Virus record (IMG/VR): IMGVR_UViG_3300005537_000315
Span: 1 to 57,122 of that record
From: a virus
Taxonomy: Duplodnaviria; Caudoviricetes
DNA: 57,122 nucleotides
Direction: 5' to 3' (one strand)
The notes beneath the pieces are model-generated. The model ran no database searches, was not told the DNA's origin, and saw only the letters and a list, made by a program, of their open reading frames with translations. Positions 37,128 through 54,072 of this stretch are shown here, one piece after another (positions within the stretch are counted from its first letter, which is position 1; every line of letters begins with the position of its first letter). The position numbers and the translations under genes were made by a program.

Positions 37128-37189
37128 TTGATGCATCAAGGGAAGGGATGCCCTAACACCCCAACCCACTCTTTAGGGAGAGTGAGATG
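37128..37189 (+). promoter_or_regulatory. kissing-loop leader of HNH gene (copy 1)
   Basis: Loops CCCTAA/TTAGGG, SD inside hairpin 2. Confidence 0.8.
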
Positions 37190-37567
37190 AAAATCTGTAG
37201 TCGATGTATTTTGTCGAAACACGAGAAAGATTTTTATACCCAAAGCGGCAGGTCGACAAAAATGTCTTGGTGTAAGGCCTGTTTGAAAGATTACAGGTCT
37301 GAGACTCAACTCGCTAATAAAAAGAGGGCAGTTGAATTATTGGGTGGGAAATGCGTTCGCTGTGGGTATTCGAAATGTTTGGGTGCCTTAGAATTTCATC
37401 ACGTAAACCCAGCAGACAAGTCCACGTACACGGGACTTAAAAACAGAAGTTGGAACACGATATCGGAAGAAATTAAAAAGTGTATTCTTCTATGTGCTAA
37501 TTGTCACAGAGAAGAGGAAGAGAAATTAAGGCCACGTAGCGCAGCGGACAGCGCAACTCTTTCCTAA
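37187..37567 (+). CDS. HNH endonuclease
   Basis: CVRCGY...LEFHH...EEIKKCILLCANCHRE. Confidence 0.9.
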   Translation: MKICSRCILSKHEKDFYTQSGRSTKMSWCKACLKDYRSETQLANKKRAVELLGGKCVRCGYSKCLGALEFHHVNPADKSTYTGLKNRSWNTISEEIKKCILLCANCHREEEEKLRPRSAADSATLS

Positions 37568-37605
37568 AGAGTGGGTCGTGAGTTCGAATCTCACCGAGGC
37601 CTCCA
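37530..37605 (+). tRNA. tRNA-Arg(CCT)
   Basis: Cloverleaf, overlapped by the HNH 3' end. Confidence 0.9.
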
Positions 37606-37718
37606 GATTTGAGCGGTGGGTAGCGAGTGGCTAACCAGTGATTCGGGCCGGAGTAGGGCGTGAAACTCGCCAACGTGTCGCGCAGCGGACAAGGCTCAGG
37701 CGCTCAAAAAGTTTACGT

Positions 37719-37805
37719 GCCTTTGTGGTGGAACAGGCAGACGCGCCGCACTCAAAACGCGGTGGGCTAACGCCCGTGTCAGTTCGAGTCTGACCAGAGG
37801 CACCA
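37719..37805 (+). tRNA. tRNA-Leu(CAA)
   Basis: Cloverleaf with V arm, CCA. Confidence 0.92.
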
Positions 37806-37811
37806 AAGTTT

Positions 37812-37886
37812 GCACAGATCGACAAGTGGCTAAGTCAATCGTCTGCAAAACGATTACCGTGAGTTCGAATCTCACTCTGTGCTCCA
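37812..37886 (+). tRNA. tRNA-Cys(GCA)
   Basis: Cloverleaf, U73, CCA. Confidence 0.92.
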
Positions 37887-37888
37887 AG

Positions 37889-38209
37889 TTGGTTGTCCAG
37901 ATGTTCGCGAAGGTCCGATCCCTTCGAGGAAGTTCAGGACACGAGTCAACACCGTGCCGTGGAAGTTGCGGGACGCGTAAGCGTACGGGTAAGCCTCGGT
38001 AGTGGACTGGGTAACGCACTCGAAAGAGTCGAGCACCAGCACCACTCATTGGAGCCGAGACAATCCACACGAGTGCAACTGCAAATAGGCGCAGAGGACT
38101 TTGTTGGCGTTCAGTGACAGCGCGGGTAGCAGGCTTCGCCTTCGGGCGACTAGAGAGGAATGAACGTCACCGCGTAAGCGGAAACAGAATCCTGGCTACG
38201 GACGACCAA
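37889..38209 (+). ncRNA. rnpB: RNase P RNA (bacterial type)
   Basis: P1 GGTTGTCC/GGACGACC, P2 ATGTTC/GAACGT, P3 GAAGG/CCTTC. CR-I GAGGAAGTTCAGGA pairs with CR-V ACAGAATCCTGGCTA to form P4 with a bulged U. Also GTGCAACTGCAAATAGG and AGAGGAATGA. Confidence 0.9.
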
Positions 38210-38210
38210 A

Positions 38211-38582
38211 GTGATGGGCAAGAAAGAAGATCAAGCTAAGTGGTATAGAAACCACCGAGAAAAGCACATGGAAAACTGTGCTGCTCGAAAAGCAGAACAG
38301 ATTGTTCGAAATCAGCAAATGATTATCGACTATTTGTTGCAGCATCCTTGCCTCGATTGTGGTGAAACAGATATAATGGTTCTTCAATTTGACCACGTTC
38401 GCGGAGAGAAGAGAGACGACATGAGTCGTTTGCTTTCGTTCTCAGAGAAAACGGTTCGTGAAGAAATTGAGAAATGTGAAGTACGTTGTGCTAATTGTCA
38501 TCAAAGAAAGACGGCAGAACGAAAACAAAGCTATAAGGTTCTATGGGTCGCAGGTGTTAGCGGCAACATTCCTCCCTCTTAA
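38211..38582 (+). CDS. HNH endonuclease
   Basis: HPCLDCGE...LQFDHVRG...EEIEKCEVRCANCH. Confidence 0.9.
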   Translation: MMGKKEDQAKWYRNHREKHMENCAARKAEQIVRNQQMIIDYLLQHPCLDCGETDIMVLQFDHVRGEKRDDMSRLLSFSEKTVREEIEKCEVRCANCHQRKTAERKQSYKVLWVAGVSGNIPPS

Positions 38583-38620
38583 GGAGCGAGTTCCGAGTTC
38601 AAGTCTCGGGCAACCCACCA
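38545..38620 (+). tRNA. tRNA-Lys(CTT)
   Basis: Cloverleaf, atypical positions 8-9, overlapped by HNH. Confidence 0.82.
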
Positions 38621-38623
38621 AGT

Positions 38624-38672
38624 TTTGTCAACTTATAGGTTGACGTTTGACAACTGTTTGTCAACTTATAAG
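38624..38672. repeat. TTTGTCAACTTATA direct/inverted mini-repeat spacer
   Basis: Two direct copies plus inverted GTTGAC and TTGACAA. Confidence 0.75.
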
Positions 38673-38680
38673 TGTACAGT

Positions 38681-38755
38681 GGGCTGCGGATGCGAGCGGC
38701 AGCAATGGGGCCTTTTAAGCCCAATGTCCGAGTTCGAGCCTCGGGCGGCCCACCA
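38681..38755 (+). tRNA. tRNA-Lys(TTT)
   Basis: Cloverleaf, atypical D region. Confidence 0.82.
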
Positions 38756-38763
38756 AAAGTTTT

Positions 38764-38839
38764 AGCCGACTAGCAAACTGGTCGTATGCGCCTCTCCTAC
38801 AAAGAGGTGGGCACGGTTCGATTCCGTGGTTGGCTACCA
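38764..38839 (+). tRNA. tRNA-Val(TAC)
   Basis: Cloverleaf, C at position 33. Confidence 0.88.
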
Positions 38840-38929
38840 AGTTCTGTGGGAAGAGTGACGGGATGTCCCAGATCGTATGCTGGGGTGCTGCCCCGTAATG
38901 GGTAACCATCCCCCGTCTTCTCAGCCTTT

Positions 38930-39019
38930 AGTCGGTAGCATGGGTATGCAGCGCGGCCTTATAAACCGCGAGCACCCGATTAGTGCGCCGAGTCGGTTCG
39001 AGTCCGACACCGACTACCA
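38930..39019 (+). tRNA. non-canonical tRNA with TAT anticodon (Ile?) and long V arm
   Basis: AGTCGGT/ACCGACT acceptor, tiny D arm, CTTATAA loop, GCAC/GTGC V arm, CCA. Confidence 0.75.
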
Positions 39020-39026
39020 AGTTTGT

Positions 39027-39100
39027 GGGGTTATCGTTTAGTGGCAGGACGCTCGGTTCTCAGCCGAATAGCCGGGGTTCGAATCCCCGTAGCCCTACCA
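39027..39100 (+). tRNA. tRNA-Glu(CTC)
   Basis: Cloverleaf, CCA. Confidence 0.9.
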
Positions 39101-39109
39101 AGTTTCAGC

Positions 39110-39185
39110 GGAGTTATCAGCTAGCGGCCTAGGCTGCCACCCTTTCAAGGTGGTCACATCGGTTCGAATCCGATTAGCTCTGCCA
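39110..39185 (+). tRNA. tRNA-Glu(TTC)
   Basis: Cloverleaf, CCA. Confidence 0.92.
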
Positions 39186-39200
39186 ATTTTAGGAGTGAAC

Positions 39201-39296
39201 ATGAGCGGACAGCTTGCAGTTATTTTCGGAGCGATTGCCGCAGCGGTGGCACTCGTGGTATACTTGCTGAACAAGTACGTGACGAAGAGCAAGTAA
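39201..39296 (+). CDS. small single-pass membrane peptide
   Basis: AGGAG RBS, MSGQLAVIFGAIAAAVALVVYLLNKYVTKSK. Confidence 0.55.
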   Translation: MSGQLAVIFGAIAAAVALVVYLLNKYVTKSK

Positions 39297-39452
39297 TGAG
39301 TTTTCAAGATTGGTTAGAGAAGCATCCGAAGATTCAAAACGTTGTTGAGTTTTTTGTTTTCATCGCGGAAGTGACCGCGTCGCCGTTCATCGACTTGTAT
39401 AATCGAGTCGCCGTGAAGTTCGGCTGGAAGGTCTATCAGTAAAAGTTTTCGT

Positions 39453-39528
39453 GGGCAGTTAGTAGCAACTGGGAAAACGCCTCGCTTGCACCGAGGAGTT
39501 GAGGGTTCGAATCCGTCACCGTCCACCA
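39453..39528 (+). tRNA. tRNA-Ala(TGC)
   Basis: Cloverleaf with G3:U70. Confidence 0.92.
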
Positions 39529-39538
39529 AATTTTATGT

Positions 39539-39612
39539 AGTCGGTTCGTTCAACGGTAGGACCGTTGCCTGATTAGCGACTGATGAGGGTTCGATTCCTT
39601 CACCGACTACCA
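39539..39612 (+). tRNA. tRNA-Ile(GAT)
   Basis: Cloverleaf, U at position 37. Confidence 0.88.
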
Positions 39613-39629
39613 AGTTTTTAGGAGAAGAG

Positions 39630-39830
39630 ATGGCCGCAAATTCAAACATTCCAGCAGTGAACGCAAAGAATCTTGCGCTGTCAAACGATACGGCGCTGGA
39701 TGTGAAAGCGATTGAATTGGAAGATACGGAGATCGTGAAGGCATTGGTGGCTAACCCGAATCGCCCTGACGCTGGAAAGCTGAACGCAAGACGCGGCTCG
39801 ATAGCAACGGCCAAAAAGAATCACGAATAA
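39630..39830 (+). CDS. hypothetical protein
   Basis: AGGAG RBS. Confidence 0.6.
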   Translation: MAANSNIPAVNAKNLALSNDTALDVKAIELEDTEIVKALVANPNRPDAGKLNARRGSIATAKKNHE

Positions 39831-39843
39831 GAAAGATTTTAAT

Positions 39844-39921
39844 TGCGGGTTAGCACTTCTGGTGAAGTCACCTGTCTCATAAGCAGGTCTAGGCTGGGTT
39901 CGATTCCCGCATCCGCAACCA
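39844..39921 (+). tRNA. tRNA-Met(CAT)
   Basis: Cloverleaf, CTCATAA loop. Initiator, elongator or Ile2 identity is unresolved. Confidence 0.85.
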
Positions 39922-40096
39922 TCTTGACACATCGGTTTCGCTGGTGAGACGCTAAGGTCGTCGACGACCAAGCTGGCGAGACTTTATCGGTTGAAGCGCG
40001 GGTTGCTTATAACAATCTGGGCATTCATAGCCTGACCAGCCCTCATTGAAAAGGCGTTCGGTTCGAAACGTTTTCCTTGGGGAATACAGTTTTTGA

Positions 40097-40170
40097 GCGG
40101 GTGTGGTGTAACGGTAGCACCTCATTATTCCAAGTTGAGTGTCGGGGTTCGAGTCCCCGTACCCGCTCCA
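40097..40170 (+). tRNA. tRNA-Gly(TCC)
   Basis: GCGGG acceptor, U73, weak anticodon stem. Confidence 0.85.
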
Positions 40171-40257
40171 AGTTCGAACGCACACGTTCCTTGCCGTCGT
40201 ACGGCGGTTGTGTGGTAACCAGTTGAAGAGGACGATAACACTGGTGTAAATTTCTGA

Positions 40258-40331
40258 GCGAGTTTGGCGTAGTGGTAGCGTGGAACCTTGCCAAGGTTCA
40301 GGCGCGGTTTCGATTACCGCAATTCGCTCCA
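40258..40331 (+). tRNA. tRNA-Gly(GCC)
   Basis: Cloverleaf, CCA. Confidence 0.92.
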
Positions 40332-40339
40332 AGTTTTGA

Positions 40340-40415
40340 GCATGGTTCGTCTAGCGGTTTAGGACATCCGGCTTGTACCCGGAGAACGTAAGTTCGAATC
40401 TTACACTTTGCTCCA
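40340..40415 (+). tRNA. tRNA-Thr(TGT)
   Basis: Cloverleaf, CCA. Confidence 0.9.
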
Positions 40416-40423
40416 AGGTTTAT

Positions 40424-40672
40424 ATGCCCAACGAATTTCTTTACTCCATAGCCCATAAGGCTCGTAAAGGCCCAAAGATAACGATGGGCAAAGGCATGCA
40501 GAGAGTTGAAACGCCTGACCCGATGCGCGGCGTGACTGATCCAGCGAAGTTGTTGAAGTCGGACACCCAGCGCATAGATAGGAACGTCGGCACTCCTGAT
40601 TTGATGTGGCAGAGGTCTCCCGCGACAGGGTCTTCGTCCGATGCAGCGGGACTGGAAATAAAAAAGATTTGA
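40424..40672 (+). CDS. hypothetical protein
   Basis: ORF exactly fills the gap between two tRNAs. Confidence 0.55.
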   Translation: MPNEFLYSIAHKARKGPKITMGKGMQRVETPDPMRGVTDPAKLLKSDTQRIDRNVGTPDLMWQRSPATGSSSDAAGLEIKKI

Positions 40673-40746
40673 GCACTGTTGATCTAATGGCATGATGCGG
40701 CCCTCGTAGCGCCGACGCCGTGGTTCGATTCCACGACGGTGCTCCA
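40673..40746 (+). tRNA. tRNA-Thr(CGT)
   Basis: Cloverleaf, CCA. Confidence 0.88.
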
Positions 40747-40753
40747 AGTTTGA

Positions 40754-40827
40754 GCAGGGATGATGTAATGGTAGCCTAGTTCCTTGGTAAGGAACCTGTC
40801 CGGGTTCGAGTCCCGGTTTCTGCTCCA
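40754..40827 (+). tRNA. tRNA-Thr(GGT)
   Basis: Cloverleaf, CCA. Confidence 0.9.
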
Positions 40828-40835
40828 AATTTTAC

Positions 40836-40923
40836 GGAGAGGTTCGGTAGCGGCAAACTAGGCAGGCTGTAACCCTGCCGTCCCTTGCGGACTTCCAAGG
40901 TTCGAGTCCTTGTCTCTCCACCA
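40836..40923 (+). tRNA. tRNA-Tyr(GTA)
   Basis: Cloverleaf with V arm. Confidence 0.92.
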
Positions 40924-41061
40924 GTTTCTACGGGGGTGTGTGAGTAGCTCTCACATCCGTAGCGAGCAGAGTGCGACGCGATCTCGGCAGAGATCGAACG
41001 GCACGTAACGATCTGACTGCACGATGCGGATTGCTGCATCCCCACCGATTTAGTTTTCTGT

Positions 41062-41136
41062 TGTAGGTTCGTCTAACGGTAAGACGGGGCACTGTTAATG
41101 CCTACGATGAAGGTTCGAATCCTTTGCCTACAGCCA
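41062..41136 (+). tRNA. tRNA-Asn(GTT)
   Basis: Cloverleaf, G73. Confidence 0.92.
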
Positions 41137-41145
41137 ATTTTCTTT

Positions 41146-41220
41146 TCACGATTAGCTCCAACGTAGAGCGGCTCCCTGTTAAGGAGAAGGTTCTTGGTTC
41201 AAGTCCAAGATCGTGAGCCA
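41146..41220 (+). tRNA. tRNA-Asn(GTT), second divergent copy
   Basis: Cloverleaf, G73. Confidence 0.9.
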
Positions 41221-41228
41221 TTTTCAGC

Positions 41229-41304
41229 AGGGAAGTCGTATAGCGGCCATTACGTACGTCTCCAAAACGTTAAGACGGGAGTTCGAGTCTCTCCTCCCCT
41301 GCCA
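41229..41304 (+). tRNA. tRNA-Trp(CCA)
   Basis: Cloverleaf, G73. Confidence 0.9.
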
Positions 41305-41306
41305 TT

Positions 41307-41370
41307 TTGAACGTTCAATTGGGTGGGCGACGCCGACACGTCGCCCCTCGCCTTGTCGGAGGCCGAGATG
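41307..41370 (+). promoter_or_regulatory. kissing-loop leader of HNH gene (copy 2)
   Basis: Loops CCGACA/TGTCGG. Confidence 0.8.
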
Positions 41371-41793
41371 AACCTGTGTCAAGTAGAAGGCTGCAATAGA
41401 GAAGTTGGTTTTCATTTAAGAAAGACCTGCTCCCAAGAGCACAAGGCCCTATACAGGCAGCAATTTGACCGTGGGCGATATGCTCGGCTGAGAGATAAAG
41501 TCTTAGAACACTACGGCAAAAAGTGCGTTTGTTGCGGTGAGACTAGAAAAGAATTTTTGGCTCTCGATCATAAAAATGGTGAAGGTCAAAAACATAGAAG
41601 AGAGTTAGGTGGCGGTGCCTTTAGAATGTATCGATGGGCGGTCAGAAACGGCTATCCTGATACATTTCAAATTCTTTGCCATAATTGTAATATGGCACTT
41701 GGATGTTGTGGCTATTGTCCGCATCAAAAAGAAAAGACCGAACAGAGGGCTTCTACAGAAGGCGGTCATTCGGACGGTAGTGCTCTGAACTGA
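41368..41793 (+). CDS. HNH endonuclease
   Basis: CVCCGETRKEFLALDHKNGEG...LCHNCNMALG..GYCPH. Confidence 0.9.
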   Translation: MNLCQVEGCNREVGFHLRKTCSQEHKALYRQQFDRGRYARLRDKVLEHYGKKCVCCGETRKEFLALDHKNGEGQKHRRELGGGAFRMYRWAVRNGYPDTFQILCHNCNMALGCCGYCPHQKEKTEQRASTEGGHSDGSALN

Positions 41794-41814
41794 GCCGTTC
41801 GTAAAGGTGCCCTT

Positions 41815-42651: not shown

Positions 42652-42835
42652 TTATCGTGAGATGAGAAAGTGGCGCAGGCTAGCGATTGCGTCCTTCTTA
42701 GCGTTCTTGTTTACTGGCTTGGTCAGCATGTGGCAGAATCATGTGATTCAAGTTCAACGCAAACAGATATTCGAACTTTGGGACGCGTATCAAAGTGTTG
42801 CGCACGGTTGTGGCGACAAGAATTTTGTTCTATAA
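42644..42835 (+). CDS. small membrane protein
   Basis: Hydrophobic segment LAIASFLAFLFTGLV, start approximate. Confidence 0.5.
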   Translation: MSDYREMRKWRRLAIASFLAFLFTGLVSMWQNHVIQVQRKQIFELWDAYQSVAHGCGDKNFVL

Positions 42836-42839
42836 TTTT

Positions 42840-42926: not shown

Positions 42927-42930
42927 GTTT

Positions 42931-43123: not shown

Positions 43124-43124
43124 T

Positions 43125-43279: not shown

Positions 43280-43355
43280 TGGAAGATAGTGTAATTGGTA
43301 GCACGGCTGACTTTGAATCAGTCAGGTGAAAGTTCGAGTCCTTCTCCTCCAACCA
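43280..43355 (+). tRNA. tRNA-Gln(TTG)
   Basis: Cloverleaf, CCA. Confidence 0.9.
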
Positions 43356-43360
43356 AGTTT

Positions 43361-43609
43361 ATGCAGAAATCACATGAAGTAGCAAAGCAATTGTTGCAGT
43401 CATTGAAGAACGTGCCTTGCAAGGATTGCGGAATACAATACCCGCACTACGTGATGGAATTTGATCACCTTATTCCACGCAACGGCAGTCTAACGATTGC
43501 AGCCCTTTCTCAGAAGGTCGGTCTGAAAAAACTTCTTGAATTGGTTTCTCAGTGCGAAGTAGTTTGTGCGAACTGCCACAAAATCCGTACGTATTTTCGT
43601 CGTAAATAA
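43361..43609 (+). CDS. minimal HNH endonuclease
   Basis: PCKDCG..YPHYVMEFDH...CEVVCANCHKIRT. Confidence 0.85.
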   Translation: MQKSHEVAKQLLQSLKNVPCKDCGIQYPHYVMEFDHLIPRNGSLTIAALSQKVGLKKLLELVSQCEVVCANCHKIRTYFRRK

Positions 43610-44767: not shown

Positions 44768-45403
44768 ATGTTTTTAATTCAAGACTTCGGCGTGAACGGG
44801 CAATTCCCGTCATCCGTAGGCGGAACTGGAACGGCGATTAAATATTTCGGTCGCAACGCCGCGTTCGCAGCAGGTGCAACGTGGACTAACCCAGCAACTC
44901 CGTCGTCGAGCAACGCTAACGGCGCGTTGATCGTTCCAGCAGACAACAAGCTGAACGGCCAGTTGATTGAAGTCGTAGCGAGCGGCGCATTCTTGCCTTC
45001 TTCGGCGATCACCTCGTCGGAAACGGTCAAGGTTGAGTTGTACGCGGTAACTGGTTCATTCGCCAGCCCGACCTACACTTTGCTAGCTGACATCAACGGC
45101 GGATTCGCTCCGGGCGTTGACGGCATCTGGTACAACTACGCGTTCGATGTTTGCCTACAGGGCAACAACGACAGCGGCATCGTCGGCGGCTTCTACACCT
45201 CGCTTGTCAACAACACTGTTGAGCGCAATAACGTTGCGTTGCAGAACTCGTTGACTGGCATTGTGTTCGGCTCATCGAGCGGCGCTTCGAACCAGCTTCC
45301 TGGTGCGTTGGGCGGCCCGTTCGGCTTGGTTGTTGGCGTGACCTTCAGCCAGAGCGACGCAGGCAACAAGGCAAAGCTGTACGAATTCTCGATCAGCGCC
45401 TAA
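44768..45403 (+). CDS. hypothetical beta-rich protein, possible virion decoration protein
   Basis: G/S/A/N-rich, AAGGA RBS, followed by a terminator-like hairpin at 45410-45437. Confidence 0.75.
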   Translation: MFLIQDFGVNGQFPSSVGGTGTAIKYFGRNAAFAAGATWTNPATPSSSNANGALIVPADNKLNGQLIEVVASGAFLPSSAITSSETVKVELYAVTGSFASPTYTLLADINGGFAPGVDGIWYNYAFDVCLQGNNDSGIVGGFYTSLVNNTVERNNVALQNSLTGIVFGSSSGASNQLPGALGGPFGLVVGVTFSQSDAGNKAKLYEFSISA

Positions 45404-45545
45404 AACCATCGGGGGTCGGAGATGGCCCCCATTTTATTCTGAGTGGTAGTGAGAGCCTCATGCGTGAGGCGCACCCCCAGAAGACCGTGTGGAATCCACA
45501 GCCTAGGACGGTAATAGCCCGACCTACATTTTTCCCAGGGACATC

Positions 45546-45827
45546 ATGCTCAACCCAGGTCAGTTGACTATAGGTGAGTTGAGTTCCGCTGTAAAAGACT
45601 ACGGAATTTTTATCACGGTGGTTGTCGTCGGCTGGAAAAGTCGAGCCGCAATTCAACCGTGCATCGATTTCGTTAAGAAAGTCAGCGACTTCATTGATAA
45701 GGTCGACGCTCGTTTCATGAGAGCCGATAAACACATGTCGCTCATGGAAGCCAACATGAGTACTTTGTTGAACAATCATCTATCGCACTTAAAGTCTGAC
45801 GCGGAGCCAACCAAAAAGTCGGAGTAA
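45546..45827 (+). CDS. membrane protein (holin-like)
   Basis: One transmembrane segment followed by a coiled coil. Confidence 0.5.
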   Translation: MLNPGQLTIGELSSAVKDYGIFITVVVVGWKSRAAIQPCIDFVKKVSDFIDKVDARFMRADKHMSLMEANMSTLLNNHLSHLKSDAEPTKKSE

Positions 45828-45833
45828 GTTTTT

Positions 45834-45903
45834 GTGGCCGTAAGGCTGCGAGGTTTGGGTGGTGCCTCTATCACCGCCCTTACTCTATAGAGGAGAGTAA
45901 ATG
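45834..45903 (+). promoter_or_regulatory. kissing-loop leader of endonuclease gene (copy 3)
   Basis: Loops CCTCTAT/ATAGAGG. Confidence 0.85.
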
Positions 45904-46320
45904 CCGTACAAAAATAAGGCAGAAAGAAACGCGCACGCTCGTCGGTGGAGAAGAAAGCATCCAGAAGTGAGTAGGCGTTGGAGAAAGAACAACCTACTTC
46001 AAAACAGAAATATTCAATTAGAAGATACAGCCAAACGCAGATATGGACTGACTCGTAAAGAACAGAGGGTACTTCACGAGAAAGTTTGTGATATTTGTGG
46101 AAAACGCGCTAAGAAAATGTGCGTAGACCATTCTGTCCCTAAAACCCATCGCGGGGTTTTGTGTCAGCAGTGTAATACGCGTTTAGGCTGGTTAGAAAAA
46201 CACGCAGATGTAATTTTGAGTTACATCAAGAGAGGGCCTTGTGCCTGCTGTATCACAAAAACAAGCAATCGCCATGCGTATCGCAGAGCACGAGCCAGAA
46301 AAGCTATACGAAAGAAATAA
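45901..46320 (+). CDS. endonuclease VII family protein
   Basis: RRYGLT...CDICG...CVDH...HRGVLCQQCNTRLG. Confidence 0.88.
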   Translation: MPYKNKAERNAHARRWRRKHPEVSRRWRKNNLLQNRNIQLEDTAKRRYGLTRKEQRVLHEKVCDICGKRAKKMCVDHSVPKTHRGVLCQQCNTRLGWLEKHADVILSYIKRGPCACCITKTSNRHAYRRARARKAIRKK

Positions 46321-46432
46321 AGGCATGGCGGACATGAGCCACAAGCAATTGCACGAATTTGCTTCAACTCCCAATAAGGGCTTACCCACGTACGCTCACG
46401 CGCATAAGGCACGACAGGCTCATGGCGGATAA
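46241..46432 (+). CDS. DUF3008-like small protein
   Basis: MPAVSQKQ...MSHKQLHEFAST..KGLP, overlapped by the endonuclease 3' end. Confidence 0.6.
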   Translation: MPAVSQKQAIAMRIAEHEPEKLYERNKGMADMSHKQLHEFASTPNKGLPTYAHAHKARQAHGG

Positions 46433-47045
46433 ACTGGTACAAATCAAATCCGTTATTGGTGTGCAGAGATGGGCGCTGGCCTTCGTCGGCGGTAAAGATA
46501 CAGGCAATCAGCCGAAGTCGTGTTTCAATTGTCCGTTTCTATACATAAACCAGAAGCGATGCCAGATTCACGGCCCGGACATTGTTATTGATCGAGCCAT
46601 GAAGGACGGAGAAGCCTATACGCCCGTGTGCGTTTACCAGCGTGGTGGGACTCCTCTCGCGGTTGCAGATAGCGAAGTGGTCTATAACGTCAACACGCTA
46701 GGCGACAAGGCGGCGGATCAGACTGGATTGGAATGGGCTAAGAGTCCTACTGGAACCAACTGCGGTGGATTTAAGCAGGGCGCTCCTTGCAAGCATTTCG
46801 TTTCAACAGACGACAAGGGGAAAGACGGCATTTGTCTTCTTATGTCTGAGAAACAAGATGAAGCCAGCGACGCCATGTCGGAGCACAAAGGCCGAGGCGT
46901 CGATTGGGACGACTGCTGTGACGGGCACGAAGGCGAAAACATCTCCTGGCGAGAAGCACAGAAACTCATGCCGTCACACGATAAAGAACAAGAAGAGGAT
47001 TTTGGCGGCGGCTACAAATACCGTCGCGGCGAAAAGAAACCATGA
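46422..47045 (+). CDS. Cys-rich hypothetical protein
   Basis: Two Cys clusters (SCFNCPF...RCQ and NCG...PCKHF...GIC...DCC). Confidence 0.7.
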   Translation: MADKLVQIKSVIGVQRWALAFVGGKDTGNQPKSCFNCPFLYINQKRCQIHGPDIVIDRAMKDGEAYTPVCVYQRGGTPLAVADSEVVYNVNTLGDKAADQTGLEWAKSPTGTNCGGFKQGAPCKHFVSTDDKGKDGICLLMSEKQDEASDAMSEHKGRGVDWDDCCDGHEGENISWREAQKLMPSHDKEQEEDFGGGYKYRRGEKKP

Positions 47046-47674
47046 AGAGGATCGTCGCATTTTTCGTCAGACACGGTGAGACCGATCTGAATGATCCCCC
47101 AGACGGCGGCAAAGAAAGATTTCGCGGCGACGCGGATGTTCTTCTGAACGACAGCGGCAAGAAACAGGCAGAAGCGCTTGTTCCTTTATTCAACGCCAGG
47201 GACTTCAGTGCAGCGTTTCACAGCGGCATGCAAAGGACTGCGCAAACTCTAGAGCCTTTGATGAAGGCCAAGGGAATGGAAGCGCACGAGATCGAGGGCT
47301 TGAACAGTCTTAACACTGGTGACTTCACGGGCATGCCGAAGAGTGAAGAGAACAAAGAAAAACTAGAGTACTACCGAAAGAATCCGAGTGTACGAATCCC
47401 CGGTGGCGAGAGCGTGAATGAGTTTCGAAAGCGAGTTGATCCTCGTTTGATGAGGATTATTCGACTGGGAGAAGAATCGGGTAAGCCGACCATTAGCGCT
47501 ATGCACGGCTCGATCATGAAAGAATTGTCTCGCCTGTTGTGTGGCGGGGATTACAAAGCGGCCAGAGTCGATCCGGGCGGCGTAGTCGCCGTTTATAAAG
47601 ACTCAGACGGCTACAGCGCCGTTCCGATTTTGAGAGAAAGTCTCGTAGACGAAGATGTTGAGCCAGGAAGTTGA
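47042..47674 (+). CDS. histidine phosphatase (phosphoglycerate mutase family)
   Basis: RHGET, R..QT, PGGES, HG motifs. Confidence 0.92.
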   Translation: MKRIVAFFVRHGETDLNDPPDGGKERFRGDADVLLNDSGKKQAEALVPLFNARDFSAAFHSGMQRTAQTLEPLMKAKGMEAHEIEGLNSLNTGDFTGMPKSEENKEKLEYYRKNPSVRIPGGESVNEFRKRVDPRLMRIIRLGEESGKPTISAMHGSIMKELSRLLCGGDYKAARVDPGGVVAVYKDSDGYSAVPILRESLVDEDVEPGS

Positions 47675-47687
47675 TAAAGGACACACC

Positions 47688-47948
47688 ATGAAACACGCAG
47701 GACACGGCTTTACGCACACCGAGATCGAGATTCATAACGACGGCAGTGCGACGATGGAACATCATCACGAGAAGGGCGCGGATTTTAACAAGCGATACTC
47801 TAAGCCCGACCTCGACGGTATTCACGACGGCCTAGAAGAAAACCTTCGCGTCGATCCTGACAAAGAGGATGAGGACGAAGAGGCCGCTGAAGAAAAGGTT
47901 CACCCTAGCATTCACGAAGAAGTAAAGAAGATTGCCAAGGGAGAGTAA
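47688..47948 (+). CDS. His-rich hypothetical protein
   Basis: Paralog of the next gene (DLDGIHD). Confidence 0.65.
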   Translation: MKHAGHGFTHTEIEIHNDGSATMEHHHEKGADFNKRYSKPDLDGIHDGLEENLRVDPDKEDEDEEAAEEKVHPSIHEEVKKIAKGE

Positions 47949-47949
47949 A

Positions 47950-48219
47950 ATGGCGAAAAAGAAGCTACACAAGATTCGCATCGATCATCACAAAGACGGC
48001 AGCCACACTAAGACCCGTCACTACAAGCATGAAGACGGCTCGATGTCGTCAGAGAGTTCTGCACACCACGATCTAGATGGTGTTCACGATTCGTTGCAAG
48101 ACCACATGGGTATGCCTAACCCAGGTGAGATGGAAGCAGACGGCGGCCAGCACGGGGTTCCAGCGGCGCAAGCAGGCCCAGCGGGTTTGCCGATGCCGTC
48201 TCCAGCGGCAGGAGCATAG
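47950..48219 (+). CDS. His-rich hypothetical protein
   Basis: DLDGVHD, GGGAG RBS. Confidence 0.65.
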   Translation: MAKKKLHKIRIDHHKDGSHTKTRHYKHEDGSMSSESSAHHDLDGVHDSLQDHMGMPNPGEMEADGGQHGVPAAQAGPAGLPMPSPAAGA

Positions 48220-48224
48220 CAAAT

Positions 48225-48290
48225 TTGTAGTACTGCAATAGGCGGGGCGTGCCCTACACACGCCCTGTTATCCTGTAGGGGGATATCATG
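48225..48290 (+). promoter_or_regulatory. kissing-loop leader of HNH gene (copy 4)
   Basis: Loops CCCTACA/TGTAGGG. Confidence 0.85.
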
Positions 48291-48824
48291 CCGAGAAGAG
48301 GACAGATAAATCCTGCAATCAGAGATGAAGCAGGTAAAATTATTCCGTGGAAAAAGCGAAATAAAGAAGCGGCTAACGTAGCAGAGCGAGATCGTAGACG
48401 TAAAAGCCGAAATAGGATTCGTAAAGAGAATCGACTTTGGCGAGAACGGAATCCATTTGCCACCGCTGCCCTCGTCGCCAATGGCCGTGCTAAGAAATGG
48501 CACGCCGTTTCTACTCTTACAAAAGAAGAGTGGAGAATCGTTGTAGAGAAGCGTGGTTTTCTGTGTCATCTTTGCGGAGGACAAGTCTCGTTAGAGATCG
48601 GAAGTCCGTTTAGGTTGAGTCTTGACCATATTATACCGCTGTCAAGAGGCGGTGCAAACGTTAAAGAGAACGTTGCCCCCGCTCACAATCACTGTAATCA
48701 AAAGCGCTCAGACATGACGTTGAGTGAGTTCGACGAGTGGTTGGATAAAGTTTATGCGGCCCGGAGAATAAATCGTGGAGAAAGCAAAAAACCCCTCACT
48801 TTACAGGGCCATCCATCATCTTAG
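48288..48824 (+). CDS. HNH endonuclease
   Basis: CHLCG...SLDHIIPLSRGGAN..ENVAPAHNHCNQKR. Confidence 0.92.
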   Translation: MPRRGQINPAIRDEAGKIIPWKKRNKEAANVAERDRRRKSRNRIRKENRLWRERNPFATAALVANGRAKKWHAVSTLTKEEWRIVVEKRGFLCHLCGGQVSLEIGSPFRLSLDHIIPLSRGGANVKENVAPAHNHCNQKRSDMTLSEFDEWLDKVYAARRINRGESKKPLTLQGHPSS

Positions 48825-48969
48825 AAAAGGCGGTTTGCATCGCGCTCTTGGTGTTCCAGAAGGCGAAAACATACCGCAGGAAAAAGTCGAAGCGGCAACG
48901 CATTCGTCTAATCCACACGTTGTTCACATGGCGAATTTTGCCAAGACGCTGAAGGGATTCAAGAAGTAA
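48775..48969 (+). CDS. hypothetical protein
   Basis: KGGLHRALGVPEGENIP motif common in phage head-region genes. Confidence 0.6.
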   Translation: MEKAKNPSLYRAIHHLRKGGLHRALGVPEGENIPQEKVEAATHSSNPHVVHMANFAKTLKGFKK

Positions 48970-48983
48970 AAACGCAGGCACGC

Positions 48984-49259
48984 ATGTCTCTTCTTTCAAG
49001 AGCGCTTGATGACAAAGACAGTTCTGTAAATGCTGCGCATCTGACCGCGTTCATTCTAGTCATCGCCTCGATTTGCTGGGTGACATACTTGGTCCTTAGA
49101 AACGGAGCAATGCCGGATTTGTCGGGCATAGCGTATCTTCTAGGCGGAAGTGGGGCGATGAACGTTTGCTCAAAGGCAGAGTCTATCATCGCCAAGTTTA
49201 AGAAACAGCCCAACGACAATCCAGCGCCGCGCATCATACCGACACCGACGCCTGATTAG
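48984..49259 (+). CDS. two-TM membrane protein (holin-like)
   Basis: Two hydrophobic helices and a basic tail. Confidence 0.55.
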   Translation: MSLLSRALDDKDSSVNAAHLTAFILVIASICWVTYLVLRNGAMPDLSGIAYLLGGSGAMNVCSKAESIIAKFKKQPNDNPAPRIIPTPTPD

Positions 49260-49275
49260 TTGCAAGGATAATCGT

Positions 49276-49551
49276 ATGCCAAACGACGCAGTATCAGACG
49301 CATTGAACAGCGCAAAAGACACGTTGGCGAAAGCGAACAGGTTTACAGAATCAGTCGAAGGAAACTCGACATCTTCGTTCGCGCCAAAGAAGCCAGAAGC
49401 GCCGCATGTTCCACAGGCTCGCGCTCCCAAAGCGCCGTCGTATAGTTTGGCTCATCAAGCTAAAGCCCTGGTGAGTGGTTTCGGAAACGTCGCCGAGGGC
49501 TTGAAGAATCGACAAGAGAACGTGAAGCAGTACGCAGACGCGCAGAAGTAG
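49276..49551 (+). CDS. hypothetical protein
   Basis: AAGGA RBS. Confidence 0.6.
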   Translation: MPNDAVSDALNSAKDTLAKANRFTESVEGNSTSSFAPKKPEAPHVPQARAPKAPSYSLAHQAKALVSGFGNVAEGLKNRQENVKQYADAQK

Positions 49552-49587
49552 GCCCGCCAATCTAATAGGGCCAAGGACAATATTGAA

Positions 49588-51879
49588 ATGGCTCTATCAG
49601 CAGCAGAACGTAAAAGGAATCAGAGGGCGAGGGAGAAGCAGGAACGCGAAAAACTCGCGGCTCTTCAACCCGCAAGACCGACCGAGGAACAAATAACGAA
49701 TCGGTTGTCTCAACACGTCCGTGATTTGGAATGGGCGCAAGAGCAAGATGCGCTCGGGCTTTTCTATAAGAGTGAATGCCGACCGCTGGTTCAGCTTTTG
49801 GCGACCTACGAAGGCGCGAACATCAACGAGAAAGAACTAGAGGAAGAAGACGAGCCTCTCGAAAAGAAAAAGCGCGAGACAAAAAACAAGCAACGTCGTC
49901 CTAATCCGTCTGTAGACGCGGTGTCTATTCGCGCTGTTGAGTTGGTCGATAGCGGCATCACCGTTAAGATTGATCCTGATCAGTGGGAATATGAAACCCT
50001 GTCGGGACAAAAAGTCAATCTTCGTAAGCTGTACGAAGTGGACGAGGTGGTTTCATTTCGTCGCTGGCTAGACCTTCGCGACAAAGCCCGAAAGGATTTG
50101 TTCTGGCTATGCAGTCTTGTGAACATGAGAATGTTTCACAAGGCCCATCAGATGATCTGCGACATGTTCGTGCAGAAGAATTTTGACGGGTTGTTTTTTC
50201 CAAGTTTCTCCCGCGCAGATTTGCCTGTGATGTTTGACAAGCAGGTACGCGTAGCCCAAGACGGCAAGACGCCGACGAAGACGATGATGTTGTTTGCGCC
50301 CCGCTCGGGACGTAAATCGACTATTGACGGAATCGACGCAGTGCAGTGGATGTTGAATTGTCCTGACGTTCGTATTCTTATTGCTACGGCTTTTCGTGCT
50401 CTGGCTAAGCAGCTATTTGGCGAAATCAAAGGCTATTTTTATCTGCCCGTAAATGGCGAGCCTTCATCATTTCAGATTTTGTTTCCCGAGTATGTGCTGT
50501 ATGGTCGCGCAGGCGAATCGGATTCGTCGTTAAAATGTCCAGCCGCAATTCACAAGTCAAAAGACGCGCATGTTTGGAAGACGTCTATGGAATCGTCGTT
50601 TACGGGTATGCGCTGCGATATCCGAAAACTGGACGACGTCGTTGATTATTCGAACTCGAATACAGAAGAACTTCGACAAACGCTAGTTGGTAAAATCAAC
50701 AGCACTGGTGATATCGTCGAGGGCTGGGGCTTCACAGACGTAGTCGGCACGCGCTACTTTACCAAAGACTGGTACGGCACGCGCATGAACAGGGACGCAG
50801 ATAATAACGACCCAGAACCGTATTCGTTTTTGTCGATTTCAGCTTGGACTCCTAAACCACAGTACCGCGCCCTTTACGAGCAGTTGCTGAAAGAGCCGAA
50901 CGGCATGTTCAAGGTCACCGAAGAAATGGTTGACCTGTGGTGGCCGGAGAGCAAGAGCCACAACTTTAAAGCGCTGATGAGAAAGCTGAAAGAAAAGAAG
51001 GAAATTTCTTTCAAGAACCAGCAGCTTAACATCGCAACAGACCCGAAAGAAATCGATCTGTATATCAATCAGTTCGATCTCGATACGCTACGTGCTCATC
51101 AGTACGACCGCACGGCAGCGCCCCAGAACATGGAGATCATCCAGACCTGGGACATCGCGTACAGCGAGCACAGCCGCACGTCGGACTATTCAGTCGGCGT
51201 AACGCTGGGCATCTACAAAAACAAAAATAACGAATATTGCGTGGTCGTAATCGAAGTATTTCTTGATAAGTGGAAGGCGTCGGAATTGGCGTCTAACATG
51301 ATCAAGTACTACGAGAAGCACCGACCGAAGTGCGTCTACATCGAGAACTCGAATGGCGTGAACTTCTTGATGGAGAACATTAAGAACTACGCCAAGTTGC
51401 GCGGCTCGGACATTTTCTCCAATGTTCGACAGCGCCCAGTATCAAACAAGCCGAACGCAAAACGTGAGCGCATCAAGGACGCCGAATTCTTGTTGGGTCA
51501 CGACCGCTTGTGGTTTGTTAGCGGGCACTGGATCGACGAGACGTACAAGCAATTAACCGAATATACGGGCGGAAAGAGCACGACGTATCGTAAGGACGAT
51601 ATCCCAGACGCTCTATCACTGGGAATCACATCGCACTTACCATCAACGGCGTTGCAGCACAACCCCGACCCGAAAGACGTGGAGAAGGAACACGAACAGC
51701 GTCAAGCCAAGGCGGCAAAAGATGCCGCGTACAATCGCATGTTCGGTAGTAATTCTCCGACAAAACCATCAGGTGGTGCGCCACCAGCGGCAGCGCCAGC
51801 ACAACCGCCAGTTAACCCTAGAGCGGAGCAATTGAAGAAATTACTCGGCAAAATCCTGCCGCCTGGAATGAGGTACTAA
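49588..51879 (+). CDS. terL: terminase large subunit
   Basis: APRSGRKST Walker A, LDDVVD Walker B, VGTRY coupling motif, TWDIAYS and DDIPDALS nuclease motifs. Confidence 0.92.
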   Translation: MALSAAERKRNQRAREKQEREKLAALQPARPTEEQITNRLSQHVRDLEWAQEQDALGLFYKSECRPLVQLLATYEGANINEKELEEEDEPLEKKKRETKNKQRRPNPSVDAVSIRAVELVDSGITVKIDPDQWEYETLSGQKVNLRKLYEVDEVVSFRRWLDLRDKARKDLFWLCSLVNMRMFHKAHQMICDMFVQKNFDGLFFPSFSRADLPVMFDKQVRVAQDGKTPTKTMMLFAPRSGRKSTIDGIDAVQWMLNCPDVRILIATAFRALAKQLFGEIKGYFYLPVNGEPSSFQILFPEYVLYGRAGESDSSLKCPAAIHKSKDAHVWKTSMESSFTGMRCDIRKLDDVVDYSNSNTEELRQTLVGKINSTGDIVEGWGFTDVVGTRYFTKDWYGTRMNRDADNNDPEPYSFLSISAWTPKPQYRALYEQLLKEPNGMFKVTEEMVDLWWPESKSHNFKALMRKLKEKKEISFKNQQLNIATDPKEIDLYINQFDLDTLRAHQYDRTAAPQNMEIIQTWDIAYSEHSRTSDYSVGVTLGIYKNKNNEYCVVVIEVFLDKWKASELASNMIKYYEKHRPKCVYIENSNGVNFLMENIKNYAKLRGSDIFSNVRQRPVSNKPNAKRERIKDAEFLLGHDRLWFVSGHWIDETYKQLTEYTGGKSTTYRKDDIPDALSLGITSHLPSTALQHNPDPKDVEKEHEQRQAKAAKDAAYNRMFGSNSPTKPSGGAPPAAAPAQPPVNPRAEQLKKLLGKILPPGMRY

Positions 51880-51883
51880 CCGC

Positions 51884-54010
51884 ATGTCATTGGACGCGCA
51901 GGAACAGAGGATCGAGCAAAAGCTGCACGACCTCTACATTGACCCGTCCGCCGAAATAACCAGGGACGACATAGCGGTCTCAGACGAGACCGATGTGCTT
52001 CAGTTTAAGGATTCGGCAGCAGTCAAGTTGGTTATCGACGACGTAGCCGAGGCCGACAACTATATCAATATTCAGCAGTGGTCGAACGGCTGGACGATGG
52101 CCGACTTGTTGTATCAGTCGCCAGCGACTCAGTCAGCGTTTGACGGCGGAAACGTCGGCAACGCTTCGGTACCAAAGTACATGGTATCGAATCACATTTC
52201 GTCAATTGTTCCCAAGGTTATGGGGGGTCTCTTCTATGAAGACCCTCCGTTCTCGCTTCGTCCTCGTCCATCAGTGACACAGGACATGGTGAGATCAAAA
52301 ACGGCGATCTTTGCCGCGCAATTGGGCGCGATGCGCTTCGAGGAAGAGGTAGAGCGTACGCTTGAACAGGCCGCATTGTTGGGCACTGGTATCATGAAGT
52401 ACGGCTACGTTGAGTACAACAAGAGGATGCGTCGTTACAAGAGGAAGGGCGAGCGTCAGGCTCTTGAACAGCCAGACGGCACGATCAAGTTGATCGACAC
52501 CCCCGACTCAGACGATTACGAAGTCGAGTTTTACAACAAGAAAATCTCGCATCCGTGGATCAAGTGGACGGACATTCGTACCGTTCTCGTGAACCCAGGA
52601 TGTCGTGTCGGAGACATTCGCCGCGCGGGTTGGGTCGTGTATCGCGATTACGCGACATACGCGGACTTAGATCAGCTACGTGGCGTGGATGGCTACAACA
52701 TCCCAGATGAGTCTGTTTTGAAACAGATTTTCTTTGGTGAGAAGCCAACATCCGGCCCAGATAATATTACCATGACGTTGCCAGAAGGCATGATGGGATA
52801 CATCCAGCATGCACTTCCGCGCAGCTACAAGACATCAGCGGACCCGACAAAGGCTCCGATTGAAATCTTGGAACGTTGGGACGACGAGAAGGTCATCGTT
52901 ATTCTTTCGTTCAATGGTCGCAACATTCTTATTCGCAATGAAGAGAATCCGTACGGAAGAATTCCGTTCTTCTCGTTCAACTGGCGCAACATCCCAGATT
53001 GTTTTTATGGACAGGGGTTGGGCCTGCTAATCGGAAGTGAACAGATCGTGGAACAAGGCGTAACAAACCTTGCACTCGATCTTCTTGCTTATGGTTTGCA
53101 GCCGACCGCAGTTCGTAAGAAAGGGTTCAACACGTTAAGCCAAGACGTCAGATGGCGTCAGGGCGGCATCATCGATGTGGAAGAGGACGTCGACAAGGCG
53201 TTCAAGTTCCTTCAGATGCCTCAAGTCCCAGGCGAGGCGTGGCAGTTCATCGCACAAGCACAGCAGTCGGGTGCATCCACTTCGGGCGCAAACGAGCAAG
53301 TAATTCAGGGCGCAGGTGCCGCTGGTGTTCGTACCACGGGCATGCGTTCAGGGACGGGTGCAGCGGCGGTCATTCAGGCCAACGCATCGCGTCTTGACGG
53401 CCCAACAGGCCGTTTTGTTCGTCAAGTGTTCGAGCCGTGGTTGTACCAGATGGACGAACTAAACAACTTGTTGTTGCCGACTTCGGTCATCCGCGACATG
53501 TTGGGTGACGAACTCGGCGAACCGAACTTGATTGACCACATGGATTTCCGTGAGGCCAACATCGAGTATGAAGTCCTTGCAGGCGCTAAGCTTGGTGCCA
53601 AGAAAGAAATGGCCCAGGCACTTCCGATCATCATCCAGTTGTTGAACAACCCAACGTTCGTGCAAAACGCGAACGACGCGGGATATGAGTTCGACGCGGT
53701 GGCGATCTTCAAGGCTTTCACGGACGCAGCGGGTTGGAAGTTCAGCCAGTCGTTCTTGAAGCCGATGACACCAGAGCGAAAGGCTCAGCATCAAGCGAAC
53801 TCGCCAGCAGCATTGCAGGCGAATCAGCAGAAGTTCATGCAACAGCAGTCGGAACGTCAGTTCGCGCATGAACAGCAAATTGAGCAAGCGAAGCAGTTGG
53901 GCAAGGCGGGCAATGAGGCGTTCCGTCAAGCCATTGAAAAATCAACAGCCCCAGAGTTGGTTACAGGGCAGCCGGGAAATGAATCGTTTGGGTCTACAAC
54001 AGCGTTGTAG
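51884..54010 (+). CDS. portal protein
   Basis: 708 aa, follows terL, ENPYGRIPFF...FYGQGLG motif typical of podovirus-type portals. Confidence 0.88.
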   Translation: MSLDAQEQRIEQKLHDLYIDPSAEITRDDIAVSDETDVLQFKDSAAVKLVIDDVAEADNYINIQQWSNGWTMADLLYQSPATQSAFDGGNVGNASVPKYMVSNHISSIVPKVMGGLFYEDPPFSLRPRPSVTQDMVRSKTAIFAAQLGAMRFEEEVERTLEQAALLGTGIMKYGYVEYNKRMRRYKRKGERQALEQPDGTIKLIDTPDSDDYEVEFYNKKISHPWIKWTDIRTVLVNPGCRVGDIRRAGWVVYRDYATYADLDQLRGVDGYNIPDESVLKQIFFGEKPTSGPDNITMTLPEGMMGYIQHALPRSYKTSADPTKAPIEILERWDDEKVIVILSFNGRNILIRNEENPYGRIPFFSFNWRNIPDCFYGQGLGLLIGSEQIVEQGVTNLALDLLAYGLQPTAVRKKGFNTLSQDVRWRQGGIIDVEEDVDKAFKFLQMPQVPGEAWQFIAQAQQSGASTSGANEQVIQGAGAAGVRTTGMRSGTGAAAVIQANASRLDGPTGRFVRQVFEPWLYQMDELNNLLLPTSVIRDMLGDELGEPNLIDHMDFREANIEYEVLAGAKLGAKKEMAQALPIIIQLLNNPTFVQNANDAGYEFDAVAIFKAFTDAAGWKFSQSFLKPMTPERKAQHQANSPAALQANQQKFMQQQSERQFAHEQQIEQAKQLGKAGNEAFRQAIEKSTAPELVTGQPGNESFGSTTAL

Positions 54011-54020
54011 AAACTAAACA

Positions 54021-54072
54021 GGGTTGAGGGGTGCCTTTACCACCCCTCGATCATCTCTGTAAAGGAGGGATG
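54021..54072 (+). promoter_or_regulatory. kissing-loop leader of endonuclease gene (copy 5)
   Basis: Loops CCTTTAC/GTAAAGG. Confidence 0.85.

Follow-up and report, generated by a model that had tools for sequence, protein, structure and literature searches.

Five genes on the right arm of an uncultured soil-metagenome phage are each preceded by a short leader of two adjacent hairpins whose loops are exactly complementary to one another. The phage is represented by a single contig of 57,122 bp (IMG/VR record IMGVR_UViG_3300005537_000315), the whole of which is referred to here as the window, and its right arm is transcribed on the + strand. The same architecture recurs in other viral contigs, where it is preserved by covariation, is tied to nuclease genes, and forms part of a mobile cassette. 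From these sequences, which are all metagenomic, we infer that the leader acts as RNA and represses translation by masking the Shine-Dalgarno (SD) sequence of the nuclease gene, with its loops pairing in cis as a pseudoknot that alternates with the two-hairpin form. This reading is favoured on prior grounds and is given about an even chance. Throughout, P0 denotes an upstream palindrome or hairpin, H1 and H2 the two leader hairpins, and L1 and L2 their loops.

All five window leaders consist of a G+C-rich H1 with the loop CCnnnn(n), followed by a weak H2 (Table 1). H1 has a G-rich 5' arm, a stem of 6–8 bp, and a 6–7-nt loop opening with CC. In every copy the H2 loop ends in GG and matches the H1 loop exactly as its reverse complement. 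A linker of 0–5 nt joins the hairpins, and the loop end and 3' arm of H2 hold an AGGAGA-like SD, the arm stopping 0–3 nt before the ATG or including it. The preliminary description of the window had placed five leaders with perfectly complementary loops and the SD in this position, all of which was borne out. It had also noted a P0 before four copies, which is real but incomplete as the fifth copy carries one too. H1+H2 is the minimum-energy structure in RNAfold for copies 2–5; the H1 of copy 1 is weak and contains an A.C mismatch, and this copy folds no better than shuffles (z-score 0). A covariance model of H1+H2 run over the whole window with filters off returned five matches at E≤1e-3, all on the + strand and all seed members that are matched by construction, with the next at E=0.09. 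A generic tandem-hairpin scan admitting weak stems found six cases on both strands of the window versus a mean of 0.97 in 30 shuffles, and a looser scan gave many weak matches.

The search was widened to 80 IMG/VR loci retrieved by their portal protein (62–99% identity), termed the portal-related set. A strict detector required an H1 core of at least 6/7 pairs, a CC-initial loop, an exact complement 10–45 nt downstream, and an H2 core of at least 4/5 pairs. In the window and these loci (1.0 Mb) the portal strand yielded 78 sites and the opposite strand 48, the latter mostly mirror images. Sites followed by an open reading frame (ORF) of at least 40 aa starting with ATG numbered 69 on the portal strand versus two on the other. 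Eleven + strand sites do not stand at a nuclease-like ORF, five lying before truncated or short ORFs and six lacking SD and ATG. When the 57 unique leaders were aligned, 95.2% of cells in the three helices were paired versus 73.5% in shuffles, and sliding the partners by 1–3 columns lowered pairing to 47–57%. Both sides have changed in 16 of 19 pairs of this alignment, including five of the seven loop-loop pairs, and G-U pairs are present in the stems. For the loop helix this covariation is circular, because the set was picked by loop complementarity.

Tests that make no use of the second loop lead to the same helix. An exact pattern describing H1 only had 121 strand-specific matches in 108 loci across all of IMG/VR, of which 56 are followed within 45 nt by a perfect 7-nt complement to the loop itself (~0.3 estimated by chance); three more have a 6-nt and four a 5-nt complement. 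The complementary sites also carry an SD and ATG. The same pattern in 120 bacterial and archaeal genome loci gave 2/149 complementary matches, both low-complexity and G+C-rich, and a second H1 pattern gave 8/121 with a complement. A covariance model lacking the loop-loop term found 71 unique matches at E≤1e-3 in 100 pattern-derived loci. Eighteen of these lie outside the H1 pattern, and all 18 have 7-nt complementary loops, of 14 different sequences. In these independent tests the loop match exceeds what chance would give (56/121 vs 2/149; 18/18). Variant leaders without CC/GG are still complementary (CACGAA/TTCGTG, CTATGAA/TTCATAG, CTGCAA/TTGCAG). Among 15,458 tandem hairpins collected without any loop rule, 7-nt loop complementarity occurred 33 times versus 1.3 expected from permuted loops.

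Pooling the portal-related IMG/VR phage contigs with other viral contigs gave 102 unique leaders with 53 distinct loop sequences. Of the 102, 93 have an AGGA or GGAG core that overlaps with the loop 2 end, and the median distance from loop 2 to the ATG is 8 nt. The preliminary description had proposed a covariance model with a wider search and named loss of loop-loop complementarity in homologues as its refutation; the search yielded further leaders beyond the window, and compensatory change preserves complementarity across the 53 loop variants. A different repeated element with a similar H1 (loop CCTCTAC) was seen in nine IMG/VR loci (L088, L089, L096, L097, L121, L153, L158, L161, L177). There the complement GTAGAGG precedes the hairpin and is part of a longer inverted repeat, and no SD or ATG follows.

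Comparison with Rfam 15 agreed with the expectation that the leader belongs to no named RNA family. At gathering thresholds the whole window gave 25 matches, all tRNA, and at E≤5 no match between 37000 and 54300 overlaps any leader. No near match of the window was found among GenBank phages. The closest named relative is Tunturiibacter phage Tunturi_3, with a 33% identical portal, in which no leader was detected (best covariance-model E-value 0.79). When two leader-plus-gene regions and a single 58-nt leader were compared with GenBank phages by BLAST, only coding parts or noise were matched. The HNH genes found this way in Staphylococcus phage SEP9 and Lactococcus phage PMBT68 are without such a leader.

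Nuclease genes and the mobile cassette

Judged by family matches, nearly every gene behind a leader encodes a free-standing HNH, EndoVII, GIY-YIG or LAGLIDADG nuclease. In the portal-related set, clusters matching EndoVII, GIY-YIG or HNH families take in 57 of the 60 downstream ORFs, with cluster sizes of 28 for EndoVII, 15 for GIY-YIG with NUMOD3, and 7, 4, 2 and 1 for HNH (Pfam or PHROGs). The remaining three are the window protein starting at 41368, an ORF of 49 aa, and one trypsin-like ORF whose leader site is weak and probably spurious. For an independent set of 42 proteins, the Pfam matches were EndoVII 14, GIY-YIG 8, NUMOD3 9, HNH_3 4 and LAGLIDADG_2 1; clustering together with Pfam and PHROGs placed 37/42 with nuclease families. 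Left over are three proteins without a family (L098, L179, L159), one weak endonuclease match (L085), and one apparent false site (L134). In the converse direction, 98 of 4,034 ORFs of at least 60 aa resemble leader-borne proteins, two of them trypsin-like. Of these nuclease-like ORFs, 67 have a leader by the strict detector and at least four more have one with variant loops.

Within the window, the genes had been assigned to different HNH and EndoVII subfamilies. This stands for two EndoVII and two HNH genes; the protein starting at 41368 had no family match in the Pfam and PHROGs scans, with one HNH look-alike lead, and is probably HNH-like. Endonucleases of the left arm, described as translationally coupled and lacking the motif, indeed have no leader in any of five minus-strand ORFs, most of which overlap or adjoin the preceding ORF.

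The leader moves with the gene, as had been proposed. At the locus downstream of the portal, leader and nuclease are both present in eight of 71 contigs and both absent in 62, with one contig carrying a leader and a 43-aa remnant ORF. An allele without the endonuclease is present at one locus, L001, whose flanks are 93.7% and 92.2% identical to those of the window. In the window, P0, H1, H2 and the EndoVII ORF of copy 5 occupy 480 bp in place of 24 bp of L001, and the comparison with this near-identical allele lacking both identifies leader and gene as a single insertion. The insertion also provides the last codons and the stop codon of the portal gene, the stop lying within P0.

Exchange of genes behind the leader is suggested by another locus. 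In nine aligned contigs, a TTGACA-17-TAAGAT promoter and a leader precede GIY-YIG, HNH or EndoVII ORFs, and the loop variants are independent of the nuclease family. As the family changes behind a constant promoter and leader, the ORFs appear to have been exchanged behind it. Intact-looking leaders were also seen before ORFs of only 43, 49 and 23 aa (L045 2706–2888, L043 1866–2064, and L074 6776–6900, respectively). These are probably decaying endonuclease cassettes in which the leader outlasts the gene.

Pairing of the loops and alternative roles

Mean energies over the 102 leaders are −15.2 kcal/mol for H1, −2.2 for H2, and −7.4 for the loop-loop duplex. At a mean of only −2.2 kcal/mol, H2 would do little to mask the SD by itself. 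Part of the SD is at the end of loop 2 and part in the H2 3' arm, where its 3' half is paired, so masking would need both the loop-loop helix and H2. H1 has a median of 8 bp contiguous and 11 extended, and H2 a median of 5 bp; the two loops stand 13–25 nt apart within one leader. From the end of the contiguous H1 to loop 2 the median is 9 nt (range 3–25) versus the median 8-bp stem, and from the end of the extended H1 it is 4–5 nt in 47/102 leaders, equal to the H2 arm alone. In solved kissing complexes with fully paired 6–7-nt loops, the stem bases lie at opposite ends of a coaxial stack. Given this geometry and so short a connection, it appears sterically implausible for the loops to kiss in cis while both stems stay intact. 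The tertiary cis-regulator envisaged in the preliminary description thus survives as a covarying structured leader that is absent from Rfam and precedes more nuclease families than noted (GIY-YIG, LAGLIDADG), but an intact-stem kiss is not supported.

As the two hairpins abut, a pseudoknot is proposed for pairing in cis. The cassette would read, in order, P0 (often self-complementary), a promoter in some cases, H1, H2 with the SD, and the nuclease ORF. The very stable H1 would display its 6–7-nt loop CCnnnAA for pairing with the UUnnnGG loop of the weak H2. The H1 loop would thereby hold the first half of the SD (AGG), and the H2 5' arm its second half (AGAG). Ribosome loading would be damped, keeping the nuclease at a low or conditional level. 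Within a single molecule the loop-loop helix would form an H-type pseudoknot stacked on the 8-bp H1 core and crossed by the H2 5' arm, a strand of 5–14 nt including the opened lower H1 stem, and this form would alternate with H1+H2. The leaders have the complementarity expected of such a fold, as the H1 loop matches a downstream strand and covariation keeps the match in 18/18 unselected cases.

Several points weigh against this pseudoknot. The three covarying helices cannot coexist in one monomer, and the fold requires H2 to melt, which leaves the retention of H2 unexplained. Where an extended H1 of 12–15 bp is followed by only 4–5 nt to loop 2 (47/102), the lower H1 must open too. The energy comparison of the two forms is a rough estimate. 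A leader is also missing, by the strict detector or by eye, from 27 of 96 nuclease-like ORFs (the two trypsin-like ones excluded) and is therefore dispensable for such genes; the leaderless ORFs include a conserved HNH gene of ~190–226 aa and the left-arm genes of the window. Finally, searches of GenBank phages found no cultured phage that carries the leader.

A possible, though doubtful, alternative is that the loops pair in trans. The H1 loop of one leader would bind the H2 loop of another copy and vice versa, hand in hand, giving dimers or chains. H1, H2 and both loop-loop helices could then coexist with the SD fully paired, in keeping with the covariation of all three helices. A symmetric dimer would need no linker and would accept any H1 length, whereas the linkers seem too short for a cis kiss. 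Translation would drop as mRNA and phage genome copy number rise. If true, the leader would act as a dose-sensing brake, limiting the amount of nuclease made while phage genomes and transcripts increase in number.

In such pairing the self-complementary P0 would nucleate the contact, and its self-complementarity is far above controls. Perfect Watson-Crick stems of 6 bp or more were found in the 42 nt upstream of 44% of 96 leaders versus 7% of 768 control segments. P0 is usually self-complementary, either as a perfect palindrome, as in window copies 1 and 2 (12 nt each), or as a 6-bp stem with a 9-nt loop holding a palindromic hexamer (2+6+1). Among unique P0 hairpins with 6–10-nt loops, 23 of 39 hold such a hexamer (nine different) versus 5 of 242 control hairpins. 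Hexamers seen include TTATAA, TAATTA, TCATGA, TTCGAA, TGATCA and others, for example at about 14915–14935 in L074 and about 4790–4810 in L008. A 6-bp stem with a 2+6+1 loop of 9 nt is also the layout of the HIV-1 dimerisation loop, and phage phi29 pRNA offers a precedent for loops that are complementary within a molecule and paired between molecules. Homo-oligomeric complexes have been reported for GOLLD RNA. However, pairing between mRNAs would be unusual as bacterial translation control, and palindromes suit DNA-binding proteins as well. A single repressor with P0 as its operator is unlikely, since the palindromes differ in sequence. The canonical-promoter class has P0 in the promoter spacer, where it would be transcribed only in read-through RNA. 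The summed H1+7+H2 length is broad (19–30 bp) with no fixed geometry evident, and one contig (L085) has two leaders with the same loop, giving no sign of selection for orthogonal loops.

An unlikely alternative is that the leader acts on transcription or RNA stability, with H1 serving as a read-through insulator or terminator and protective 5' hairpin and the loop match being secondary. The stability of H1 (mean −15.2 kcal/mol) would suit this role, as would the five or more T found in an 8-nt window just past the extended H1 in 40/102 leaders. Sigma-70-like promoters (at least 9/12 matches) with a −10 element ending 0–29 nt before the H1 core were called for 25/96 leaders, compared with ~1 per 10-nt bin elsewhere, and would put H1 at the 5' end of the transcript. 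In the clearest class, TTGACA-17-TAAGAT/TAGGAT with a palindromic spacer, transcripts would begin at the H1-core base, leaving the lower H1 extension to read-through RNA alone. Against such a role, only 19/102 leaders have at least two T in the first 3 nt after H1, and a terminator scan listed none of the five window H1 hairpins. No sigma-70-like promoter was called before these five leaders, phage-specific promoters being outside the reach of this consensus scan. The match of the three variable central loop positions (18/18) would be left unexplained.

Some further observations concern the sequence upstream of H1. In L010 (8860–9080) and eight other loci, the 17-nt promoter spacer is a near-perfect palindrome centred on TTGCAA. 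Exact copies of TTTGTAGCTACAA occur in 8/312 loci and lie directly upstream of a leader in 7/7 checked; with three mismatches allowed, it is not enriched in the window (14 matches vs 13.3 expected). Loop 1 was considered as a promoter −10 element and rejected, as many loops are G+C-rich (CCGCGAA, CCGACA).

A role at the DNA level, as hairpins or cruciforms or as insertion, recombination or nuclease-recognition sites at the cassette border, is very improbable, for although the left border of the 480-bp insertion falls exactly at P0 and the shared promoter and leader before three nuclease families put exchange points at or near the ATG (cf. the PeSL modules of T4-type phages, PMC4122927), the element is strongly strand-specific with a fixed register to SD and ATG (69 vs 2), has G-U pairs in its stems and a freely variable loop that offers no conserved protein site, and is common to four unrelated nuclease folds. 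The transcriptional and DNA-level roles are both disfavoured because neither explains the loop covariation or the strand and SD register. The pseudoknot in cis remains our preferred reading.

Features of the window

Positions of the leaders, their genes and the neighbouring features are collected in Table 1. The window also encodes 32 tRNA genes. Sequencing runs listed for 45000–54900 comprise three soil DNA sets, one of them a possible source of the contig, and no RNA set. Two more HNH-like ORFs (phrog_2255-like) without a leader lie on the + strand at 38211–38582 and 43295–43609; the latter overlaps tRNA-Gln (43280–43355), making its true start or integrity doubtful. Within the tRNA cluster, directly 5' of the first of these, 37889–38213 (+) matches the class A RNase P RNA of bacteria (RF00010) over its full length, with 79.6 bits (E about 1e-23), which is below the gathering score of 100. 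The GAGGAA..UC and ACAGAA..CC strands are conserved and the specificity domain is partly missing, and the region is a candidate phage-encoded RNase P RNA. On the minus strand, an Rfam tRNA match at 27224–27350 (46.5 bits) spans 127 nt and hence has a ~55-nt insertion; ARAGORN makes no call here. Inside it, at 27269–27310, are two adjacent hairpins with 6-nt complementary loops.

Table 1. Positions in the window of the leaders, their upstream elements and genes, and neighbouring features (bit scores are from the covariance model).
Feature	Positions	Strand	Details
P0 copy 1	37128–37139	+	perfect 12-nt palindrome TTGATGCATCAA
Leader 1	37145–37186	+	H1 37145–37162, H2 37167–37184, ATG 37187; 35.5 bits
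Leader 1 loops	37151–37156 / 37173–37178	+	L1 CCCTAA / L2 TTAGGG
HNH endonuclease gene	37187–37567	+	phrog_2255 (2e-31); by Pfam weakly
P0 copy 2	41307–41318	+	perfect 12-nt palindrome TTGAACGTTCAA, 3 nt past tRNA-Trp
Leader 2	41325–41367	+	H1 41325–41346, H2 41347–41367 (one bulge), ATG 41368; 19.3 bits
Leader 2 loops	41333–41338 / 41354–41359	+	L1 CCGACA / L2 TGTCGG
141-aa protein gene	41368–41793	+	CxxC..DH..CxxC pattern
P0 copy 3	45834–45849	+	hairpin GTGGCC-GTAA-GGCTGC
Leader 3	45857–45900	+	H1 45857–45879, H2 45880–45900, linker 0, ATG 45901; z −2.71; 48.5 bits
Leader 3 loops	45865–45871 / 45887–45893	+	L1 CCTCTAT / L2 ATAGAGG
EndoVII-family nuclease gene	45901–46320	+	
P0 copy 4	48225–48238	+	imperfect palindrome TTGTAGTACTGCAA
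Leader 4	48245–48287	+	H1 48245–48265, H2 about 48268–48286, ATG 48288; 29.9 bits
Leader 4 loops	48252–48258 / 48274–48280	+	L1 CCCTACA / L2 TGTAGGG
HNH endonuclease gene	48288–48824	+	
Terminase	49588–51879		
Portal	51884–54010		stop codon 54008–54010
P0 copy 5	53993–54011	+	hairpin, 8-bp stem, contains portal stop codon
Mobile cassette copy 5	53995–54474	+	P0, H1, H2, EndoVII ORF; 480 bp in place of 24 bp of L001
Leader 5	54026–54074	+	H1 54026–54048, H2 54050–54074, ATG 54070 within H2 3' arm; z −3.02; 43.5 bits
Leader 5 loops	54034–54040 / 54059–54065	+	L1 CCTTTAC / L2 GTAAAGG
EndoVII-family nuclease gene	54070–54486	+	
Left-arm endonuclease-like ORFs	4921–5466, 5411–6169, 10463–10903, 11996–12565, 23039–23473	−	without motif

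Relation to known systems

Free-standing homing endonucleases are the commonest selfish genes of phages, and to our knowledge only a few T4-type cases have shown how a phage tolerates them. The leader is a single small RNA architecture on four unrelated nuclease folds; it lies inside a mobile cassette, and compensatory changes have preserved it in soil and other viral metagenomes. It may represent a portable, testable expression module of ~45 nt as well as a marker for annotating endonuclease cassettes and their borders. The natural orthogonal 7-nt loop pairs could be useful for RNA design, and if the pairing is intermolecular, this would be a new mode of RNA-dose translation control.

The nearest functional parallel is the structured leader that pairs the SD of T4-type endonuclease genes (I-TevI, I-TevII, I-TevIII, segB, mobE), as described in PMC2988022. 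Both elements stand directly 5' of a phage homing endonuclease gene, presumably as a limit on expression of a selfish nuclease. In the T4-type cases, masking relies on one stable local hairpin that is relieved by a late promoter inside it, whereas H2 is weak (mean −2.2 kcal/mol) and the SD would also pair with the loop of a separate upstream hairpin, covarying over 53 variants. The promoter-like sites here are upstream of H1, unlike those of T4-type genes, and transcripts would retain the H1 core, both loops and H2.

The gene 32 leader of T4 and T2 contains an H-type pseudoknot upstream of the ribosome-binding site that nucleates protein binding, with a 7-bp second stem bridged by almost no loop nucleotides. 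As proposed for the leader described here, the loop of a hairpin base-pairs with sequence farther downstream, close to where a phage gene starts. The proposed pseudoknot differs in that its second stem would contain the SD, its 3' strand is the loop of another hairpin, and no protein partner is implied. Fully complementary loops of 6–7 nt are also found in ColE1 RNA I/RNA II and TAR-TAR*, but those complexes form between molecules. The phi29 pRNA has two complementary loops per molecule, which covary among phages and pair hand in hand between molecules. All three complexes are intermolecular, whereas the present element has both loops close together in one mRNA leader. The expression platform of the cobalamin riboswitch uses a loop-loop contact to hold a hairpin at the ribosome-binding site, dependent on a ligand-binding aptamer, whereas the leader has no aptamer-like domain and no Rfam match.

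PeSL are composite terminator/promoter stem-loop modules repeated in T4-like genomes at exchange points between unrelated genes (PMC4122927). They share with the leader the placement of a common regulatory module before unrelated genes, although here only about one leader in four has a recognisable promoter, and PeSL are described with neither loop-loop complementarity nor a tie to nuclease genes. No description of the motif was found in the full-text literature searched, subscription journals and supplements being outside this search. SD-masking leaders of endonuclease genes are thus known, and what appears to be new is a widely conserved loop-loop architecture that accompanies putative homing endonuclease cassettes of four folds.

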